A stretch of 14,690 nucleotides of DNA from Anaerohalosphaeraceae bacterium (GCA_050309605.1 JBNRMN010000061.1:1-14690); one strand, 5' to 3'. Counted from the stretch's first letter, positions 5,879 to 14,539 are shown. The notes: a model not told the origin generated them from the letters alone. Made by a program: numbers and translations.

Positions 5879-6817
5879 ATGTTAAACAATCAGGTTCAAT
5901 CGCTCAAAACGAAGCTGGCGGTGTATCCGCTGGGCACAGCCGTGGCGCGGTTTATGGATTATATGACCGTGGAGGCGGGGCTGTCGGCCAATACGCTGCT
6001 GGGGTATGGACGGGACTTGTTGAAATTCTGCGCTTATTGTACCCAAAAAGACATCAAACAGCTTGACGGCCTGTCCGCGGTAACGGTGTATGGCTACCTT
6101 CAGCAGCTTGCCCGCCACGGCCTGCGTGAAAACAGCCTGAGCCGGTCGCTGGTGGCGATCAAGATGCTGCTGCGATTCGGGCTGATGACCGGGGCGGCGC
6201 AGGATGATTTTACCGATGCCCTGGAAGGCCCGAAACTTTGGAAGCGGCTGCCCAGTGTCTGCGGCAAAGAACAGGTGCTGCGGCTGCTGGACGCCCCGCA
6301 ACCGGACGATCCTTATTTTCTTCGCGACAAAGCGATGCTCTTTCTGCTGTATGCCACCGGCGCACGGGCCGGGGAAGTGACGGGGATGCGGGCCAAGGAT
6401 GTCAATCTGGAGATAGGCTATGTCCGCTGTTTCGGCAAAGGGGGCAAAGAACGGATTGTGCCCCTTGGCAAAACCGCCGCCGTCTATTTGAAAGAGTATC
6501 TTGTGCAGCAGCGGCCCGCCCTGCTGAAGGCCCATAGTCCGGAGACGCTGTTCCTTTCGCGTACCGGCCATGGGCTGGATCGCACCAATTTGTGGCGGGT
6601 GGTCAAGAAATACGCCCTTCGCGCGGGGATGCCGAAAAACCTGACCGTTCATACCCTGCGGCACTGTTTTGCGACGCATCTGCTGGCCGGGGGGGCCGAT
6701 CTGCGGTCGCTGCAGGAGATGCTGGGCCATGCCGATATTCGCACCACACAAATTTACACCCACGTGGATCAGGACCGGCTCAAAACCATCCATAAAAAGT
6801 TTCACCCCCGCCATTAA
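5879..6817 (+). CDS. xerD: Site-specific tyrosine recombinase, XerD-like
   Basis: N-terminal SAM-like domain (GLSANTLLGYGRDL) and an intact catalytic set: LYATGAR, GKGGKER, HTLRHCFATHLL, LGHADIRTTQIYTH. The C-terminus HKKFHPR and the 312-aa length are typical of XerC/D. Confidence 0.88.
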   Translation: MLNNQVQSLKTKLAVYPLGTAVARFMDYMTVEAGLSANTLLGYGRDLLKFCAYCTQKDIKQLDGLSAVTVYGYLQQLARHGLRENSLSRSLVAIKMLLRFGLMTGAAQDDFTDALEGPKLWKRLPSVCGKEQVLRLLDAPQPDDPYFLRDKAMLFLLYATGARAGEVTGMRAKDVNLEIGYVRCFGKGGKERIVPLGKTAAVYLKEYLVQQRPALLKAHSPETLFLSRTGHGLDRTNLWRVVKKYALRAGMPKNLTVHTLRHCFATHLLAGGADLRSLQEMLGHADIRTTQIYTHVDQDRLKTIHKKFHPRH

Positions 6818-6892
6818 ACACGCTACAATAGAGCACGACCGCAGCGAAGCGGCTGTACAGAGGCGCTCCGCAAATACAATGAACGATGTCCC

Positions 6893-7696
6893 ATGGCAGA
6901 GACAGAAACCATCATTCGGGTTGACCGGCTGACAGCGGGGTTTAACGGAACGCCGGTGCTCAAGGAGGTCTCGTTCTCGGTTGAGACAGGCGAGATTTTC
7001 ATTATACTCGGCGGGTCGGGCTGCGGCAAAAGCACCCTGCTTCGGCATCTGATCGGCCTGCAGGAGCCGATGGACGGTCACATCCACATCCTCGGACAGG
7101 AGCTGACCGGCGCCAGCGAATCCGAGCGGCGATCCATTTTGTCGCATATCGGCGTGGCGTTTCAGAGCGGAGCGCTGTTCGGCTCAATGACGGTGCTGGA
7201 AAACATTGCCCTGCCGCTGGAAGAGTTTACGAGCCTGCCTAAAACAGCGATTCGCTGGATTGCCGGCTCCAAGCTTCGGCTGGTCGGACTGGGCGGCTGT
7301 GAGGACCTTTTGCCGGCTCAGCTTTCCGGCGGGATGCAAAAACGGGCCGCCCTGGCACGGGCGATGGCGCTGGATCCGAAAATCCTGTGTCTGGATGAGC
7401 CGTCGGCAGGGCTGGATCCGGTCACCGCTGCTCAACTGGATGAATTGATCGTGCATTTGTCCGATATCCTCGGCGTGACCTTTGTCATCGTGACCCACGA
7501 GCTGGCAAGTGTCTTTACATTGAACGGTCGAGTGATTATGCTGGACAAGCAGGCCAAAGGCATTATCGCCGAAGGACGGCCCGATGAACTCAAAAATGAC
7601 CGTTCCAATGCAGCGGCCTGGCAGTTTTTTAATCGAAGCCTGAAGACGGCCGAAGAAGGCTCCATCGGAACCGGTTTGAATGGAATCAACAAGTGA
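6893..7696 (+). CDS. mlaF: ABC transporter ATP-binding protein, MlaF/Ttg2A family
   Basis: Walker A GGSGCGKS, FQSGALFGSMTVLENI, signature LSGGMQKR, Walker B LCLDEPSAGLDP and H-loop VTHE. Confidence 0.88.
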   Translation: MAETETIIRVDRLTAGFNGTPVLKEVSFSVETGEIFIILGGSGCGKSTLLRHLIGLQEPMDGHIHILGQELTGASESERRSILSHIGVAFQSGALFGSMTVLENIALPLEEFTSLPKTAIRWIAGSKLRLVGLGGCEDLLPAQLSGGMQKRAALARAMALDPKILCLDEPSAGLDPVTAAQLDELIVHLSDILGVTFVIVTHELASVFTLNGRVIMLDKQAKGIIAEGRPDELKNDRSNAAAWQFFNRSLKTAEEGSIGTGLNGINK

Positions 7697-8643
7697 AGCA
7701 GAAAGCGACATATTTTAAGGTGGGTTTGTTCGTACTGGTCTGCGCGGCCGGACTGGTGGCCGGGCTGCTGTACGTCGGGGCCGATGTGCTGCGCGGCGAG
7801 GTGGTGCGGGTCGAGACATATATCGACGAATCTGTACAGGGACTGAGCGTCGGCTCGGCAGTGCTGCATCGAGGGGTCAACATCGGTCAGGTCGAGCGGA
7901 TTACCTTTGTTCAGGTCGAATATCCGATGGCCCCGGACAGCCCCGAGTTTCGTCAATTCGGACGGTATGTGATGGTGGTCATGGCCATCGATCCGCGCAA
8001 GTTTCCCGGGCTGGACCGCGATCCGGACATAATCACCGCAATGTTGCGCAATCAGGTCTCGCTGGGCCTGCGGTTCAAACTGAGTTATCAGGGGATTACC
8101 GGACTGTCGTTTATTGAGGCCGATTACGTCGATCCGGAGCGCAACCCCGAACTGCACGTGCCGTGGGTACCCAAACACATTTATATTTCTTCGACACCGA
8201 GTCTGTTTACCAGTTTTACACATGCGGTGGAAAGTGTCTTTCAACGGCTTGAACAGATTGATTTTGAGGGCCTGTTCGCCCAATTAAACAACACCTTCGA
8301 GGCCATTGAGACCACGCTGCACGACGCCGACGTGGGTCAAATTCGCGAGGCGATGGTGGAGGTGATGGAGGATATCAAGACAACCAACCGACATATCCAA
8401 TCGCTGCTTAACCAGACCGACGAGCCGATGCCCGGCAACATCCCTCAAGCGGTAGAGGCCTTCAGTCAAACACTCGGCCGCGTCGATAAGCTGCTTGGAC
8501 GACATGAAATGGATATTGATGCGGTTATGGCCAATCTGAAAATTCTTGTGCACAACCTGCGGCAGGTTTCGGACAGTATTAAAGATAATCCAGCGCGATT
8601 GCTGTTTGCCGCCCCGCCGGAAAAATCGGAGCTTGTACCATGA
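7693..8643 (+). CDS. MCE/MlaD-family substrate-binding protein with a C-terminal helical region
   Basis: N-terminal TM (FKVGLFVLVCAAGLVAGLLYV) and MCE motifs SVQGLSVGSAVLHRGVNIGQV and QGITGLSFI. The GTG start overlaps the ATPase stop (GTGA). Confidence 0.9.
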   Translation: MKQKATYFKVGLFVLVCAAGLVAGLLYVGADVLRGEVVRVETYIDESVQGLSVGSAVLHRGVNIGQVERITFVQVEYPMAPDSPEFRQFGRYVMVVMAIDPRKFPGLDRDPDIITAMLRNQVSLGLRFKLSYQGITGLSFIEADYVDPERNPELHVPWVPKHIYISSTPSLFTSFTHAVESVFQRLEQIDFEGLFAQLNNTFEAIETTLHDADVGQIREAMVEVMEDIKTTNRHIQSLLNQTDEPMPGNIPQAVEAFSQTLGRVDKLLGRHEMDIDAVMANLKILVHNLRQVSDSIKDNPARLLFAAPPEKSELVP

Positions 8644-9269
8644 GACCCTCAACATTCATTCGGACGATCGGACTTGTTTTACTCCTGCTGCCTGCGGTCG
8701 GCTGCGGCCCGCTTCGTCAACCCCCGCCGGCCAAGGCGTTTTACCTGCTGGATATTCAGCCGGAATCGCAGCCGCAGCGTCTGTCGCCGGCGGTTTGCTT
8801 TCGCGTACGGACCGTGTCCGTCCAGTCGCCGTTTTCAGGCACAAGCCTGATCTATCGCACCAGCGAAACAGCCTACCAACGGGACTATTACAATCAGTTT
8901 CTTGTGCCCGCCGACCAGCAGCTCGGCGAAGCGCTGGCCGCATGGCTGCCGGCGGTCGGCGTGGTGCTTTGCCCGGATGCCGCAACACAAGACCAGACAG
9001 AAAGACTGACCCTTGAGCCGCATCTGGAAGCGCTGTACACCGATTTTCGCAACCCCGAATCGCCATCGGCCTATGTACGCCTGCGGTTTGCAATCACGAC
9101 ACATGACCGCTCCTGTCGGTGCAGCCGAATTCTGCTGAACGAATCCTTTGAGGCGACGGTCAATGTGCCGGCCAACCCCACCGCCGAACAACTCGTTGAG
9201 GCGATGAGTCGGGCCGTCGCCGAGGCCTTCGGCCAATTCCATTCGGCCCTTGAAAGTCTGTTTCCGTAG
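8640..9269 (+). CDS. PqiC-like / ABC-type transport auxiliary lipoprotein
   Basis: Lipobox AVG-C22, motifs FYLLD, LIYRTSE and DYYNQF, an ATGA overlap with the MCE gene, and the standard position after an MCE gene. Confidence 0.82.
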   Translation: MRPSTFIRTIGLVLLLLPAVGCGPLRQPPPAKAFYLLDIQPESQPQRLSPAVCFRVRTVSVQSPFSGTSLIYRTSETAYQRDYYNQFLVPADQQLGEALAAWLPAVGVVLCPDAATQDQTERLTLEPHLEALYTDFRNPESPSAYVRLRFAITTHDRSCRCSRILLNESFEATVNVPANPTAEQLVEAMSRAVAEAFGQFHSALESLFP

Positions 9270-9306
9270 GCTCACAGGCCAACACAATCGGCCTTGTCGC
9301 TTTGGC

Positions 9307-9870
9307 TCAGGATGTCGGCGAAATCTCAATATCAACCCGCGTACCGTGGATCAGCGTGTTGTAAACGGGGGAAAACGCGGCCAATTCTTTGAGTTTGGGC
9401 AGATTTTCGGGTGCTGTCTTAACGGTGAAACGAATACGGATATGCTGATAGCCTTTGGGTACATCAGGATCCAGCCCCAAAAAGCCCCGCAAGTCGATCC
9501 GGCCGTCAAGCTGTGATTCGAGGTGTTCAATCGCGATGCCGCGCACCGCGGCATGGGCCACCAGACTCGTCGTCACACAGGCCGCCAGGGCGTTGAGCAA
9601 ATGTTCAACGGGATTGGCGCCCTGGTCCGTACCGCCCAAGGCCTGCGGCTCATCGGCGTGCAGGTCAAACGGCTGCCGGTGCGATTGCTCACCGCCCAGA
9701 CATTTGAAACAAGTGATATGCGACTGATTGTGTCCGCCAGAGACCCACCGGTTGCGGGCACGAAAGACACATTGACCTTGTTCCGGATCGGCTTGGATGG
9801 CTTTGACGGTTTTTTCAAGCGATTCCATATCGATACCGTTGGTAACGGTCTGTAATTCGGTTGTTTTCAT
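9307..9870 (-). CDS. OsmC/Ohr-superfamily protein lacking the second conserved cysteine
   Basis: DEPQALGGTDQGANPVEHLLNALAAC, IDLRGFLG, and FSPVYNTL (Ser where canonical OsmC/Ohr has CP). ATG at 9870 follows a strong GGAGGTG SD, so it is preferred over TTG at 9912. Confidence 0.9.
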   Translation of the reverse strand: MKTTELQTVTNGIDMESLEKTVKAIQADPEQGQCVFRARNRWVSGGHNQSHITCFKCLGGEQSHRQPFDLHADEPQALGGTDQGANPVEHLLNALAACVTTSLVAHAAVRGIAIEHLESQLDGRIDLRGFLGLDPDVPKGYQHIRIRFTVKTAPENLPKLKELAAFSPVYNTLIHGTRVDIEISPTS

Positions 9871-9985
9871 AATATCACCTCCGTTAAAACGGTTTGGGTT
9901 TTCTTGTGTCAATCTTTCCCATACGTCCGCTCAAAGAGGTCGTTCGCTTGAAAAATCAGTCTTGAAATGTAAAAAAGGAGGACAT

Positions 9986-10015
9986 AAAAAAATGGGAGAG
10001 CTGAACGGCTCTCCC
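9986..10015 (-). terminator. Rho-independent terminator
   Basis: The minus strand reads GGGAGAGC-CGTTCA-GCTCTCCC-A-TTTTTTT, a perfect 8-bp GC-rich stem followed by a U7 tract. Confidence 0.85.
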
Positions 10016-10025
10016 GTGAAACTGG

Positions 10026-10163
10026 AATGGCTCTTCTCTTATCGGTTACTGCCTCTTCCCCTGCGGCTGACAATTGCCTGTTGCCTTGTGGTCCCGCTCC
10101 ACGATTGCCCGGCCGCCGGGGATCAGCCCGGATGACCTTCTGGGTCATTGATTAAGAGCCATT
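10026..10163 (-). ncRNA. Candidate structured RNA (riboswitch/attenuator leader or sRNA), family unassigned
   Basis: Perfect 10-bp closing helix (10154-10163 with 10026-10035), a 6-bp hairpin (10132-10148), an interrupted rod of about 16 bp (10104-10122 with 10057-10074) and an apical GTGG-AGCGGGA-CCAC hairpin (10088-10102). It is a GC-rich island inside AT-rich intergenic DNA and is directly followed by a terminator. Confidence 0.6.
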
Positions 10164-10273
10164 AAATACGGTATTGAATTTTGTTTTCTCTTTTTATTTC
10201 TACGACTCGTATCGACCATCAGGCCAAAAAATCTTTAGTTATTTTCCTTTTATTTTGATTTTTTGTCGCGGTG

Positions 10274-12178
10274 TTATCGCGAAAATAATTCGGTTGAATT
10301 CGATACGGTTTGAATGGCCGGTCGGGGCGGCTTTTTCATCTCCGCACCCAAGTAAAAACCGGTATGGGGCGGCTGATTGTAGCCGACATTTTGCCAGGCG
10401 ACGCTGAGCCGATAGACCGGATCGTGCATCAGGGTATAAATACGGTTTTTGGCCGGAACAGTGGTCGTGAAAATCCTCAATTCCCGCCGATCGCGTGTCG
10501 GCCAGATCACTTCTTCTCGCCAGTCGCCCAGGATATCGGCCGACAGGCAGGGATTGGCTTTTGAACCATTGATGGAGACACAGTCGTAGCGGCGGGCATC
10601 CAGCAGCAGCTCCGTATCGTGAGTGTCGGGATTCCATTTCTCAATTTGTGTGCCGCTGAGCAATTCGCGCGTCAGGTCGCTGTCCCACCACACGGCCATA
10701 TTGCAGCTCCGAGGCCGACGCGGGGCGACAACCTGGCCGGTGGCGGCGGCATACAACCGGTCCAATCCCCTTCCGACCGCCCAGACCTCATAGCCGGGGT
10801 GGGCCGGATCAATATCGGCGGCCATGCCCCGTACCACATCCGGCGAGGGGCGGCTCCACAGCAGCTTGCCCGTGGAGGCGTCGCGTACATCGATGCCGTG
10901 CGGGTGGCGGGGATTCTCGTGGATCGAAAAGGTCTGCAATTCGTCCCGGTCGGGAATCATCTTCGTGGTGTGCTGAGCGTCGCCGTGACCCAGTTGCGTC
11001 GAATAGCGCCCCGTGCCGTCGGGGTTGATGACCGCGCCGCCGTAGATAATCGAATCGCGACCGTCGCCATCCAAATCGGCTACGGCAATGCTGTGGTTGC
11101 CTTGGCCGATATACTCGCGGTTGATGTCGTCATCGATGCCGACCGCCGCCCTGAACAGCCAGACCGTCGTCAATTGACCGTCGCGCCAGTTATAAGCGGC
11201 AATCTCATTGCGAGCAGGCAGCCCCCGCTGCGGGCCGTAATAGCCGCGCGCCATAATCAGACTCGGACGCTTGCCGTCCAGATAGGCCACCGCCGCCAGA
11301 AAACGATCCGACCGATTGCCGCGATCATCTCCCCATTGCCTGACATCGCCGCGCGCCGGCTCAAAATCGATGGTCTTCAGCGCCGCGCCCGTACGGCCGT
11401 CAAAAACCGTCAGATACTCCGGCCCTTCAAGAATTCTGCCTTGACGATTGCGGTAGTCGGCATCAGGGTCGCCGATGACCTTGCCCGTTCCATCGACTGT
11501 GCCGTCGGCGGTTCGTACCGCGACCTCGGCGCGTCCGTTGCCGTCCAGATCATAGACGATAAACGGCGTATAATGTGCGCCTTCGCGGATGTTTTTGCCC
11601 AGATCGATTCGCCACAGAAACGTCCCGTCCAGCTTATAGGCTTCGAGTTTGGTCTGGCCGGTATAGCCGTCATGGGCGTTGTCGCGCGGGCGCATCTCCT
11701 GTTTGACGACGATGTCATACTCGCCGTCGCCGTCCAGATCGCCCACGGCCGCATCACCGACACGATGACCCTCCAGCGTTTGCAGTGGAATGGACAGATA
11801 GGGCTTGACTTCAGCGCCGGCCGGGAGCGTAAACGGCCGACTGGCCGGCTGCTCTTTGCCGTCCAGCACCGGACGCACGAAATAGGCATTCGACTTTGAT
11901 AAATCGACGTCTGTATCGACAAAATCGGTGGTCTTGACAATCGGCTCGTCGTTCAGACGCACCGGCTCACCGTCGCCGGCAGCACGGTACAGATTAAACG
12001 CGATCTCCGGCGCATCTGTGCCGAACAGCCGCCAGCCGATATACACCTGATCTTCTTGGGTTGGAATCGCCGCCACCCCGCGGCTGAGCTGTTCCATCTG
12101 CCGCTGCGCAACACCGATCTGAGCGCTTAAAAAAACACCCCCGACACATCCGACGAATACACCGCACCATTTGCCCAT
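10274..12178 (-). CDS. Secreted rhamnogalacturonan lyase, polysaccharide lyase family 11 (YesW/YesX-like)
   Basis: Signal peptide followed by QRQMEQLSRG, then GDLDGDGEYDIVVK, IDLGKNIREGAHYT, GPEYLTVFDG, RSDRFLAAVAYLDG, GQGNHS, HGDA, NGSKANPCLSADILGDWREE and YRLSVAWQNVGYNQPPH. The start is ATG at 12178, or alternatively GTG at 12184. Confidence 0.95.
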   Translation of the reverse strand: MGKWCGVFVGCVGGVFLSAQIGVAQRQMEQLSRGVAAIPTQEDQVYIGWRLFGTDAPEIAFNLYRAAGDGEPVRLNDEPIVKTTDFVDTDVDLSKSNAYFVRPVLDGKEQPASRPFTLPAGAEVKPYLSIPLQTLEGHRVGDAAVGDLDGDGEYDIVVKQEMRPRDNAHDGYTGQTKLEAYKLDGTFLWRIDLGKNIREGAHYTPFIVYDLDGNGRAEVAVRTADGTVDGTGKVIGDPDADYRNRQGRILEGPEYLTVFDGRTGAALKTIDFEPARGDVRQWGDDRGNRSDRFLAAVAYLDGKRPSLIMARGYYGPQRGLPARNEIAAYNWRDGQLTTVWLFRAAVGIDDDINREYIGQGNHSIAVADLDGDGRDSIIYGGAVINPDGTGRYSTQLGHGDAQHTTKMIPDRDELQTFSIHENPRHPHGIDVRDASTGKLLWSRPSPDVVRGMAADIDPAHPGYEVWAVGRGLDRLYAAATGQVVAPRRPRSCNMAVWWDSDLTRELLSGTQIEKWNPDTHDTELLLDARRYDCVSINGSKANPCLSADILGDWREEVIWPTRDRRELRIFTTTVPAKNRIYTLMHDPVYRLSVAWQNVGYNQPPHTGFYLGAEMKKPPRPAIQTVSNSTELFSR

Positions 12179-12229
12179 GGCCACCTGCCTTTCTGTGAAT
12201 CGTGTTTATCAACAAAGACGAGCCGAACG

Positions 12230-12281: not shown

Positions 12282-13076
12282 TCATTTGGATTCACTTTCG
12301 GGTGGGCTGAACTCAGCGGCCAGCCGCACCCCGCGCGAGGCCAGATACGCCTTGAGATCCGGAATCTCGATCATTTTGAAGTGAAAGACCGAGGCCGCCA
12401 GCAGAATCGTCGCACCGGCCTGAACCGCCTCATAGAAATGTTCAAGCGTGCCCGCGCCCCCGGAGGCGACGATCTCGGCATGCGTGGCGGCCTTCATTTT
12501 CTCAATAATCGGCAAATCATAACCGGTTTTGGCCCCGTCGCCGGCCTTGCTGGTCGGCAAAATCACCTGCACGCCGAAGTCGGCGACTTTCCTGGACCAT
12601 TCCACCGCATCGGCGCCCGTGGCCGTGCGTCCGCCGTCGATATAGACCTCATAGCCGCTGGGCAGCGCGGGATTGCGATCTACGTCAATAGCGACCGTGA
12701 CCCGTTCGGGGCCAAAGGCCTTGACCATCTCGGCAATGACATCGGGCCTGCAAAACGCGGCACTGCTGGTGGAGATTTTGTCCGCACCGGCGTTTAAGAC
12801 CGCCTCGGCGGAGGCCGCATCGCGAATCCCCCCGCCGACCGTAAACGGCACGGTTGCCGCCTCGGCCACCCGACGCACGACCTCCAGCAGGGTCGCCCGA
12901 CCCTCAACGGTGGCGGTAATATCCAACAGCGCCAGCTCATCGGCCCCGGCGGCACAATAGGCCGCGGCACATTCGACCGGATCGCCCGCATCCCGAATAT
13001 CCACAAAATGCACCCCCTTGACCACACGCCCATCCTGCATATCCAAACACGGCATGATCCGCACCGACTGCTGCAT
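12282..13076 (-). CDS. hisF: Imidazole glycerol phosphate synthase cyclase subunit (divergent HisF)
   Basis: RIMPCLD, GRVVKG, DAGDPVE, DELALLDITA, PFTVGGGI, VAID, ASGGAG and LAASVFH. ATG at 13076 follows GAAAGGGA. The alternative start at 13106 overlaps the upstream stop. Confidence 0.9.
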   Translation of the reverse strand: MQQSVRIMPCLDMQDGRVVKGVHFVDIRDAGDPVECAAAYCAAGADELALLDITATVEGRATLLEVVRRVAEAATVPFTVGGGIRDAASAEAVLNAGADKISTSSAAFCRPDVIAEMVKAFGPERVTVAIDVDRNPALPSGYEVYIDGGRTATGADAVEWSRKVADFGVQVILPTSKAGDGAKTGYDLPIIEKMKAATHAEIVASGGAGTLEHFYEAVQAGATILLAASVFHFKMIEIPDLKAYLASRGVRLAAEFSPPESESK

Positions 13077-13102
13077 CGCTGTCCCTTTCACAACTGAGAT
13101 TG

Positions 13103-14539
13103 TCATTGCTGATTTATCCTGGCGGCATTGTACCGCTCAACAGGACTCTTGAAAAGGGTTTTTCGAAAGATACAGGCTGCAAGCAAGACTCCTGAAACAA
13201 ACAGCCCCGGCCAAAAGCCCCCACGTGCAAACGGCGTAACACCTTTGATTATCGGCACATCGGCAATGATCCAGCCCGGACCGTCGCGGTAATGGTCACA
13301 GTAAGCGAGAAGTTGGCCGGCGGGGCCGATCGCTGCCGAGATGCCGTTGGCCGCACCGCGAACGATCCCGTACCGACCTTCAATCGCCCGCGCCTGAACC
13401 GCCTGCAGATGCGCCGTACGGATGGTCCACCAGTCCGCCGTCGGGCACAATACCACATCGGCCCTGAGCCTGCCGTACCTGCGCGTCAAGGGGGTAAAAT
13501 TGTCGTCCTGGCAAATCATCGCTCCAATGGTATGGCCGTGTACTTCGACCGTCTTCAGATCGCCCGTTCCTTTTTTGCCCGGTTCATAGGGCGTCAGATA
13601 GGTCTTGGTATATTCGTGGACGATGTTGCCTTGCGGCGACATAAAAAACAGACGATTTTCGTCTTCACTGACATTCCAGTAGCCAACCACCAGCCACATC
13701 GCCGTCTGTCGGGCAATGCTTGCGAATCGCTCCATCCACATCAGCCGCTCGTGGTCGGCAATATAAAACCCCATTTCGCCGGTGGTAAAAATTACCGCAC
13801 CCGCCGCAGCGGCCTGCCGTGCCGGAGCAGCAAACAACGCCTCAAAACCTTCCGGCCTATGCGGATCGATGTCAGCACTGCGGTCATCAAAGACCCAGCC
13901 GGCTGCGGCGATTCGAATCGTACCCACCGGTTTTCGCCGCCATGCCATCACATCAGCCGCGAGCACCAATCCCAACAGCACTGCCAATGCCGTCATTGCA
14001 CTGGGTCGCAGGCGGGGTATTCCAATCGCAGTAACGACCAATGCCTGCATTGCCCCGAGCACAAATACCACACCGCAGATGCCTGTCCATTCGATAAAAC
14101 CGACAGCCGCCGGATACGCCGTCCAGCTTCGCGCAAACGACTGAGCCAGTCCCCAGATCGGAACCGCCAAGACATTGAGCACATCCAACAGAAACCAGGC
14201 CGCGCCAACCGCGACGGCCGAGCAAACACCGTCTGTTCTCAGAAGCCAACCCGTCGCTGCACACAAGCCCGTCAGCAGCAAACATACCCACAGCAGCAAA
14301 ATAACCGTGACCGTCACCGGCATTCGCAAATAAACCATCTGCGGCAGGATATAAAAAATACCCATATACAAGCCCGCCATACCTGCATTGCCGATGTGCT
14401 TGTGTTTGAGGGTCAGCCACAGCAGCGGACCCAGCGCTGCGACTTGCAGGAGACACGCCGGACCCCAAAATTGTCCCGCCGCCAGCATCAATCCCCCAAC
14501 CGCTCCGGCCGTTCGATAATACCACATCGTCGCTTTCAT
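13103..14539 (-). CDS. Apolipoprotein N-acyltransferase (Lnt)-like membrane protein, nitrilase/carbon-nitrogen hydrolase superfamily
   Basis: Multiple N-terminal TM helices, an E-K-C triad (TGEMG, YTKTYL, ICQD), RAIEG...RGAANGISA and one C-terminal TM helix. An AAAGGGG SD lies upstream. Confidence 0.82.
   Translation of the reverse strand: MKATMWYYRTAGAVGGLMLAAGQFWGPACLLQVAALGPLLWLTLKHKHIGNAGMAGLYMGIFYILPQMVYLRMPVTVTVILLLWVCLLLTGLCAATGWLLRTDGVCSAVAVGAAWFLLDVLNVLAVPIWGLAQSFARSWTAYPAAVGFIEWTGICGVVFVLGAMQALVVTAIGIPRLRPSAMTALAVLLGLVLAADVMAWRRKPVGTIRIAAAGWVFDDRSADIDPHRPEGFEALFAAPARQAAAAGAVIFTTGEMGFYIADHERLMWMERFASIARQTAMWLVVGYWNVSEDENRLFFMSPQGNIVHEYTKTYLTPYEPGKKGTGDLKTVEVHGHTIGAMICQDDNFTPLTRRYGRLRADVVLCPTADWWTIRTAHLQAVQARAIEGRYGIVRGAANGISAAIGPAGQLLAYCDHYRDGPGWIIADVPIIKGVTPFARGGFWPGLFVSGVLLAACIFRKTLFKSPVERYNAARINQQ

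Follow-up and report, generated by a model that had tools for sequence, protein, structure and literature searches.

Here, we describe a structured small RNA (sRNA) of about 180–215 nt that is encoded as an independent gene at approximately 10201–9986 on the minus strand of a 14,690-nt stretch of DNA from an Anaerohalosphaeraceae bacterium (JBNRMN010000061.1). The whole stretch is referred to as the window, and coordinates given without a contig name are those of the window. The RNA folds into a three-way junction (10163–10026) composed of a 10-bp closing helix (P1), a hairpin (P2), and a long rod, and it ends in an intrinsic terminator. The structure goes beyond chance, as homologues keep it with compensatory changes. 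These homologues were found in Planctomycetota, where an earlier note on this DNA had expected them, and they are restricted to part of one order, Sedimentisphaerales (Phycisphaerae). At a probability of about one-half (0.45–0.55), we read the RNA as a stand-alone structured molecule that acts in trans and has a protein-binding role, i.e., as a subunit of a ribonucleoprotein (RNP) or as a decoy.

Architecture of the RNA

The elements of the RNA in the window are as follows.

10201–10164, minus strand: predicted A/G-rich 5′ leader; the start near 10201 is placed by the usual distance to the −10 element.
10163–10154 and 10035–10026, minus strand: P1, AAUGGCUCUU paired with AAGAGCCAUU (sequence inspection and fold).
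10148–10132, minus strand: P2 hairpin, AUGACC (10148–10143), loop CAGAA, GGUCAU (10137–10132) (sequence inspection and fold).
10130–10043, minus strand: P3–P6 rod, with helices UCCCC/GGGGA, GCGGC/GCCGC, and GGCAAU/AUUGUC, internal loops, and an apical hairpin.
10102–10088, minus strand: apical hairpin GUGG-AGCGGGA-CCAC (sequence inspection).
10089–10073, minus strand: most conserved unpaired stretch, ACAAGGCAACAGGCAAU here, on the 3′ side of an asymmetric internal loop (column conservation in 63 sequences).
10042–10026, minus strand: junction strand J3/1 (AUAAGAG) and the P1 3′ strand AAGAGCCAUU (fold and sequence inspection).
10015–9986, minus strand: intrinsic terminator, GGGAGAGC (10015–10008) paired with GCUCUCCC (10001–9994), loop CGUUCA, then A and U7 (9992–9986).

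The base of the rod reads CGG..GCU/GGC..CCG here (also written CGGGC/GC..CCG) and UUAGC/GCUAA in most members of the family. The terminator recovered by a pattern scan has a stem of eight pairs, six of them G-C, a loop of 6 nt, and a following AUUUUUUU, which is the form of an intrinsic terminator. All structural elements described in the earlier note are present at the minus-strand positions given there, and the distance from the terminator to the next gene, put at about 115 nt, is 116 nt between the U-run and the ATG at 9870 of a gene from the OsmC family (Pfam OsmC).

The minimum free energy structure (−72.5 kcal/mol, z = −3.9) reproduces P1, P2, the rod, and the terminator, and none of 200 shuffled sequences is as stable; at the apex, its pairing differs from the GUGG/CCAC hairpin. 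The fold, the terminator pattern, and the compensatory changes in homologues bear out the earlier claim of a structured RNA ending in an intrinsic terminator. The opposite strand folds equally well or better (z = −5.1), and hence the strand was not assigned from folding alone. The minus strand is indicated by the U-run terminator, the upstream promoter block, and the covariation model.

The two strands of the terminator resemble those of P1: GGGAGAGC is similar to the P1 3′ strand (AAGAGCC), and GCUCUCCC to the P1 5′ strand (GGCUCUU). A strand swap between P1 and the terminator is conceivable on paper. A required switch of this kind is disfavoured, since some members (locus L039, and family f5) have unrelated terminator stems with P1 unchanged.

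Homologues and covariation

A BLASTN search of 60 relatives yielded matches, full-length or partial, in the same family only, namely in 13 of the 36 genomes belonging to it; the other families had none. An exact-pattern scan with one genome per species identified 22 loci, found in metagenome-assembled genomes of Anaerohalosphaeraceae, Sedimentisphaerales, Phycisphaerae, or Planctomycetota and in one isolate (L025); a few of these loci are labelled as other Planctomycetota. Plain MAFFT alignment misplaced the variable rod, so that RNAalifold detected no more than P1, P2, and the terminator; model-guided alignments were used instead. A covariance model was built from eight close sequences with a hand-set structure, 24 distinct members were re-aligned to it, and the model was rebuilt. 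The alignment to this second model comprises 63 members, after the addition of 40 divergent ones.

In the 24 sequences, 90.1% of alignment cells at modelled pairs hold standard pairs, compared with 38–46% when the partners are slid by 1–3 columns, and double-sided changes are seen in 17 of 41 pairs. For the 63 sequences, the respective values are 87.6% against 38–43%, with double changes in 34 of 41 pairs (247 cells). In both cases, none of 500 shuffles reaches the observed values; it should be kept in mind that fitting the alignments to the model gives its pairs an advantage and that the shuffles take no account of relatedness. The conserved and covarying helices on which the earlier note had made its proposal depend are present in both alignments.

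The support extends over most of the molecule. In the 63 sequences, both sides have changed in eight of the ten P1 pairs, one of which is A-U in 33 members and G-C in 23, and in four of the six P2 pairs, including one that is G-C in 45 members and A-U in 10. All five pairs of P5 (GCGGC/GCCGC here) are doubly changed; as many as six pair types are seen, and 91.2% of the cells in this helix are paired. Covariation also extends to pairs of P3. Support is weaker for the inner P6 helices (66–68% paired), and the middle of the rod varies among members in both length and sequence. The terminator is the most regular element, with 99.0% of cells paired and double changes in seven of eight pairs. A crude all-against-all scan of alignment columns revealed no covarying pairs beyond the model helices, and hence no pseudoknot or tertiary covariation.

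Invariant letters are concentrated in the helices at the junction (UGGCUC/AAGAGCCA, CC/GG of P2, and a G-C pair of P3) and in one unpaired stretch. At least 90% conservation is observed for AAGAGCCA, on the 3′ side of P1, across the 63 sequences. The junction strands and the P2 loop differ between families, the sequence of the latter being conserved only inside Anaerohalosphaeraceae. The unpaired stretch (10089–10073 in the window) has the family consensus aCAaGgCaGA..G.Aa and, judging from its conservation, is a candidate protein-contact or seed element.

Coding explanations of the conserved region were considered and rejected. A leader peptide is not supported, no upstream ORF (open reading frame) being conserved in any frame. 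A 79-aa ORF at 9909–10148 (minus strand) is not conserved, its AUG being replaced by AUA in other members. The five-codon frame AUG GCU CUU AAU CAA UGA (M-A-L-N-Q-stop; 10161–10144, minus strand), which lies over P1 and P2, recurs as M-A-L-N-Q/K-stop in most members from family f1, and the codon differences there look synonymous (CUU/CUG, CAA/CAG/AAA/AAG, UGA/UAA). The frame is not preceded by a Shine-Dalgarno sequence and, in some members, opens with ACG or CUG; we judged it to be due to chance, and it is probably a by-product of constraints on the RNA. Similarly, the occurrence of CCGAUAC in both the promoter block and J3/1 of some members is uncorrelated across members and was judged to be a coincidence.

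Phylogenetic distribution

The distribution was assessed by applying the second covariance model to genome samples with the stricter filters of Infernal, so that "not found" below does not mean "absent." Across 150 sampled Sedimentisphaerales genomes, the RNA was identified in 91 of the 114 that represent four families of this order (f1, 33/43; f5, 22/26; f6, 2/2; f7, 34/43). It was found in none of the 36 genomes from the other four families (f2, 0/25; f3, 0/3; f4, 0/1; f8, 0/7) and in none of 131 genomes from 18 other families of Phycisphaerae.

Within the family of the present bacterium, full-length matches at E ≤ 1e-9 occur in 48 of 70 genomes; of the remainder, four show nothing beyond weak matches resembling the terminator, and 18 show no match. 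Some complete genomes of f1 lack a match, e.g., G016, which is a single contig. The RNA gene is present in a single copy in the genome studied here and in most others. Several strong copies were observed in G068, which has four (contigs C107, C64, C69, and C25), and in G014 (C2, C89), G083 (C163, C167), and G073 (C16, C19), which have two each. These copies are full-length, reside on different contigs, and score 101.7–134 bits; they may be true paralogues or stem from mixed bins.

Genomic context

Neighbouring ORFs were assigned by a simple longest-ORF rule, and 12 of those downstream of the 40 loci described below have no Pfam support and may be spurious. In the first ten loci examined, the next ORF is convergent in four cases (two response regulators, an AcrB-type transporter, and one ORF without a Pfam match). 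The six same-strand followers encode OsmC, a HAD hydrolase, a Sel1-repeat protein, TopA, an ECF sigma factor, and a HEAT-repeat protein. A further 40 loci include 24 in which the closest ORF downstream is convergent. Pfam support exists for 18 of these: ClpB and amidohydrolase (six each), FtsW/RodA (two), and MlaD, GMP synthase, RuvB, and a dehydrogenase (one each). The other 16 downstream ORFs are on the same strand; the ten with Pfam support are functionally unrelated, comprising two beta-CASP RNases, two DUF6941 proteins, ArgH, a LigT-like protein, YfiO, a pilin-like protein, a fucosidase, and a Mur ligase. Among the loci examined, an OsmC gene follows the RNA only in the present genome.

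Upstream genes are often divergent and close (79 nt away in L006), and at several loci a convergent gene ends right at the terminator, with its stop codon adjoining it. Synteny is kept within a family; the RNA gene of f5, for instance, lies between a divergent Fe-ADH gene and a convergent clpB. The convergent or unrelated neighbours, together with synteny within families, point to a vertically inherited independent RNA gene rather than a leader. A constant place before related genes on the same strand, the mark of a cis-regulatory leader, was not observed. The earlier note had left the choice between a cis-regulatory RNA and a stand-alone sRNA; the latter is upheld, and the link to the OsmC-family gene is not.

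The gene upstream of the RNA in the window (10274–12184, minus strand) encodes a family-11 rhamnogalacturonan lyase (RGL11_C, E = 3.7e-207). Such a gene precedes the RNA in only two of the first ten loci, namely here and in G002, and in comparison with G001 it looks inserted between hisF (12282–13106) and the RNA. Beyond the OsmC-family gene, five ORFs have no Pfam match at E ≤ 0.001 (5882–7147, 7184–7711, 7432–8283, 8284–8655, and 8656–9093, all on the minus strand). Genes for RNA-processing enzymes were observed after the RNA in three loci only: a beta-CASP/RMMBL ribonuclease gene lies on the same strand 89–104 nt downstream in both loci from f6 (L090, L091), and a gene for a 2′-5′ RNA ligase-like protein (2H phosphoesterase) lies 10 nt downstream in L080 from f7.

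Promoter block and sigma factors

Two elements upstream of the RNA in the window form a putative promoter.

10237–10230, minus strand: −35-like element TAAAGATT, preceded by an A/T-rich tract; its position is conserved upstream of homologues (predicted function).
10216–10209, minus strand: −10-like element GTCGATAC, family consensus G[C/T]CGAT[A] (predicted function).

The spacer between them is 13 nt. A corresponding block, conserved in both sequence and spacing, is found in 61 of 63 members and consists of an A-tract, TT[C/A]AA[G/C], TTT, 12–13 nt, and G[C/T]CGAT[A]. In the −35 region, T at −22 and A at −20 are each conserved in 55 of 59 members, and A at −19 in 48 of 59. The −10 element has a CGA anchor in 61 of 63 members; the remaining columns are G (47/61), C or T (51/61), T (51/61), and A (35/61). 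In most members the anchor is located 20–52 nt before the start of the model, which places P1 inside the transcript, with a leader of variable length.

The consensus of sigma-28 (FliA) promoters is TAAAGTTT-N11-GCCGATAA. The −10 element of the RNA fits the GCCGATAA type, a consensus borne out by flagellin promoters of this genome and order, and the −35 element, of the TAAAG/TTCAAG type, resembles TAAAGTTT, but the spacer in the RNA family is consistently 13 rather than 11 nt. The flagellin promoters of the same genome are TTAAGATG-N11-TCCGATAA and TAAAGAAC-N11-GTCGATAA (C67:108403–108429 and C67:110198–110224, respectively). Across the order, a sigma-28-type pattern precedes 9 of 16 flagellin loci, and all 11 regular-expression matches have an 11-nt spacer. 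A genome-wide search with a loose promoter expression produced largely noise: the Pfam-annotated genes downstream of the matches are unrelated, the two flagellin genes excepted.

Two genes for sigma factors of the FliA/WhiG family score above the NCBIfam cut-off in this genome, C17:5158–5940 (minus strand) and C20:114658–115542 (plus strand), with 260 and 199 bits, respectively. Orthologues of the former, the C17-type, are present in 141 of 151 genomes of the order. Four genomes of f5 without flagellin all retain the RNA and its promoter; in three of them, the C17-type is the sole sigma factor of this kind, and in the fourth (G101) there is a second paralogous match above the cut-off that contains a stop codon. 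As the C17-type is kept in these four genomes and in most of the order, a non-flagellar sigma-28-like factor seems to be general in Sedimentisphaerales. The promoter class would fit a FliA/WhiG-type sigma factor, perhaps this non-flagellar paralogue. In G001, a genome of the same genus, a second copy of the C17-type gene (79% identity; C3:15517–16272, minus strand) is located 2.4 kb upstream of the RNA (C3:12961–13140, minus strand), which may be a coincidence.

Sigma-28-dependent small RNAs are known from flagellar regulons, namely MotR, FliX, and FlgO in enterobacteria and CJnc170 and CJnc230 in Campylobacter. The new RNA shares with them an sRNA gene behind a GCCGATA-type −10 and a TAAAG-type −35 element. 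Unlike them, it is far more structured, bears no sequence relation to any of them, and is kept in 11 sampled genomes without a flagellin match.

Transcription

In an anaerobic-digester metatranscriptome (X2), one 222-nt contig covers 10047–10268 with 100% identity at a depth of 2.5. No other contig of this dataset falls within 9300–10900, the uncovered parts of which carry no information. The contig weakly supports transcription of the intergenic region. A further dataset (X1) was discarded as transcript evidence, being probably DNA, with scattered contigs that cover genes too, and two others (X5 and X6) contributed nothing.

Comparison with known RNA families

No part of the window matches any of the 4227 covariance models of Rfam 15 at gathering thresholds. 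At E ≤ 10, the region 9850–10350 yields five chance-level matches (12.7–17.2 bits) to sRNA and long non-coding RNA families, mostly on the terminator or the A/T-rich flank and none over the junction fold. In 20 homologous loci, Rfam models have no match at the RNA, the sole match being an unrelated tRNA. The earlier note had claimed that the RNA lacks the cores of a number of known RNAs, and the Rfam scan agrees with this. A full-text literature search found no description of this RNA or of sRNAs from Sedimentisphaerales. By sequence and structure, it is a new RNA class; the novelty is that of an RNA family, and the function may prove to be of a known kind.

Several known types of RNA were considered and rejected. 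The 6S RNA of this genome is encoded elsewhere (RF00013; C20:45929–46114, 49.6 bits), with no 6S match at the present locus. The RNA of the signal recognition particle matches at C67:127283–127380 (RF00169, 68.5 bits), with no match in the window. A Y RNA is not supported, with no TROVE match in the 99.7%-complete genome and no Y RNA match in the window. The same genome has no match to Hfq (PF17209), at variance with an Hfq-dependent sRNA. CsrA is encoded in the genome; nevertheless, a CsrA sponge of the CsrB/RsmZ type is unlikely, because GGA motifs are few and not conserved: there are 0–5 per RNA body, with none in 8 and one in 23 of 63 members, and no position is conserved family-wide. The new RNA thus shares with these sponges a stand-alone gene with a terminator and a genome encoding CsrA, and differs from them in having no GGA array.

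Like 6S RNA, the new RNA has a length of about 180 nt, paired 5′ and 3′ ends, a long imperfect rod, and a nearly single-copy gene widely kept in its lineage. Unlike 6S RNA, it is branched with a short closing stem, and the 6S model does not score at the locus. With transcription-terminating riboswitches it shares a P1-closed three-way junction directly before an intrinsic terminator; unlike them, it has no constant downstream gene, mostly convergent neighbours, and conserved helices combined with variable junctions.

The closest likeness is to orphan classes of structured sRNAs, e.g., the raiA motif, Acido-Lenti-1, and Bacteroidales-1, as presented in Weinberg et al. (2010; PMC2864571). In common with these are an independent gene with a terminator, a covarying multi-helix fold, restriction to a single lineage, variable neighbours, and the lack of an assigned function. 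All three classes are in Rfam, and none was matched here; the new RNA differs in belonging to Sedimentisphaerales and in having a conserved FliA-like promoter. The same source lists the Rhodopirellula-1 motif as a doubtful cis-regulatory motif that has no Rfam entry.

Possible function

The RNA would be transcribed from its own FliA/WhiG (sigma-28)-like promoter TAAAGATT-N13-GTCGATAC, situated about 50 nt upstream of P1, and would work in trans, its likeliest role being to partner a protein or to serve as a decoy for one, exerting no control over the OsmC-family gene that happens to follow. Protein binding is favoured for four reasons. Firstly, nearly the whole molecule is structurally constrained. 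Secondly, the helices close to the junction have invariant sequences, whereas those of the junction strands change. Thirdly, the sole conserved loop is embedded in the rod, leaving no free linear seed. Finally, Hfq was not found in the genome.

A number of observations weigh against this scheme. The conserved unpaired stretch of 16 nt would suit a base-pairing seed equally well, and no conserved neighbour gene points to a protein partner in the loci examined. The covariation figures carry the bias of model-fitted alignments and the neglect of relatedness noted above. As for the promoter, the spacer is 13 nt in the RNA gene and 11 nt in flagellin promoters, and recognition of the sigma-28 type is putative. 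The RNA does not track flagella: all 25 sampled genomes of f2 have flagellin but none has the RNA, and 11 genomes have the RNA without a flagellin match. Neither does it track the FliA/WhiG paralogue (141/151 genomes), and its range is narrower than that of flagellin and of both sigma factors. The transcript evidence is one low-depth contig, uninformative on ends or strand, and it extends 67 nt upstream of the predicted start, so that read-through from the lyase gene or DNA carry-over is possible.

The best placed of the alternatives, which we still regard as unlikely, is a stand-alone base-pairing sRNA, in which the internal-loop stretch aCAaGgCaGA..G.Aa would serve as the seed for messenger RNA (mRNA) and the remaining fold as a scaffold and protection from nucleases. 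Its gene would have the same anatomy (own promoter, terminator, variable context), the 16-nt conserved stretch is unpaired in the model, and a sigma-28-type promoter would be in line with the sigma-28-dependent base-pairing sRNAs of enterobacteria and Campylobacter. However, structural constraint and conserved helix sequences extend over most of the molecule rather than a seed alone, and no Hfq was found in the 99.7%-complete genome. Moreover, the "seed" differs in this very genus (GCAACAGGCAAU vs. GCAGAUCGUAAU) and is partly paired there as GGCAAU/AUUGUC.

A narrower form of the protein-binding role, that of a dedicated subunit or decoy of an as yet unrecognised RNP in Sedimentisphaerales, wired to the regulon of a non-flagellar FliA/WhiG-type sigma factor that these bacteria would retain when flagella are lost, is a speculative and rather improbable proposal. 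Such an RNA might be a 6S-like antagonist of this holoenzyme, with a conserved single-stranded GCnGAU..AA loop mimicking the GCCGATAA −10 element; if this were true, an alternative sigma factor would for the first time be the target of a 6S-type RNA.

It is slightly more doubtful that the RNA senses a ligand or acts as a catalyst on its own, as a trans-acting riboswitch-like sRNA or a new ribozyme. The compact, strongly conserved multi-helix architecture with an invariant internal loop would be in keeping with this, as would the lack of an evident partner protein among the neighbours. On the other hand, the junctions are poorly conserved, the crude column scan yielded no pseudoknot or tertiary covariation, and no ribozyme or riboswitch of Rfam 15 matches even at E ≤ 10.

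A 6S-like decoy of RNA polymerase, possibly of the FliA/WhiG-type holoenzyme, with paired ends, a partly open middle, and a long rod, is highly improbable. Of 41 genomes from the order, 39 have a canonical 6S RNA (RF00013), in families carrying the new RNA as well as in others, and the 6S model has no match at this locus. The closing stem at the ends, followed by a rod, and the FliA-type promoter of the gene itself do speak for such a decoy, and the conserved loop GCnGAU (GGCCGAUGG in L006 and L022) recalls the −10 core GCCGAT, a 5/6 match noticed post hoc. The closing stem is only 10 bp long, though, and the helix before the loop motif is not long enough to imitate promoter DNA.

Very little weight can be given to a cis-acting riboswitch or attenuator, in which the three-way junction would be the aptamer and the terminator the expression platform for the OsmC-family gene. 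What suggested it, i.e., a junction and terminator upstream of a same-strand gene in the window and the drawable swap between terminator strands (GGGAGAGC/GCUCUCCC) and P1 strands (AAGAGCC/GGCUCUU), is outweighed by the genomic context: convergent ORFs follow in 24/40 and 4/10 loci, the same-strand neighbours are unrelated, and OsmC follows only here. In addition, typical aptamers would show the reverse of the variable junction strands and conserved helices seen here, unrelated stems take the place of the terminator in some members (L039, and family f5) with P1 unchanged, and 116 nt separate the U-run from the OsmC ATG.

Least credible is the view that the RNA is no independent gene here and belongs to the mRNA of the rhamnogalacturonan lyase, as its structured 3′ untranslated region or as read-through, for although the lyase gene ends at 10274 on the same strand and the X2 contig (10047–10268) reaches upstream of the putative promoter, the lyase lies upstream in only two of the first ten loci, divergent genes occupy this place elsewhere (79 nt away in L006), and the promoter block is conserved across four families.

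Biological significance

Described regulatory RNAs are almost nil for Planctomycetota, and especially for the anaerobic Phycisphaerae. The RNA reported here is strongly supported by covariation and is kept at nearly one gene per genome in about 80% of sampled genomes from four families that are abundant polysaccharide degraders of digesters and sediments. Retention and structural constraint of this degree are usually seen in RNAs that play a central part in the cell. The FliA-like promoter offers an experimental handle on the timing of expression and on the sigma factor involved, and would connect the RNA, in a way open to testing, with an alternative sigma factor; the carriers of the RNA gene include an isolate genome (L025).

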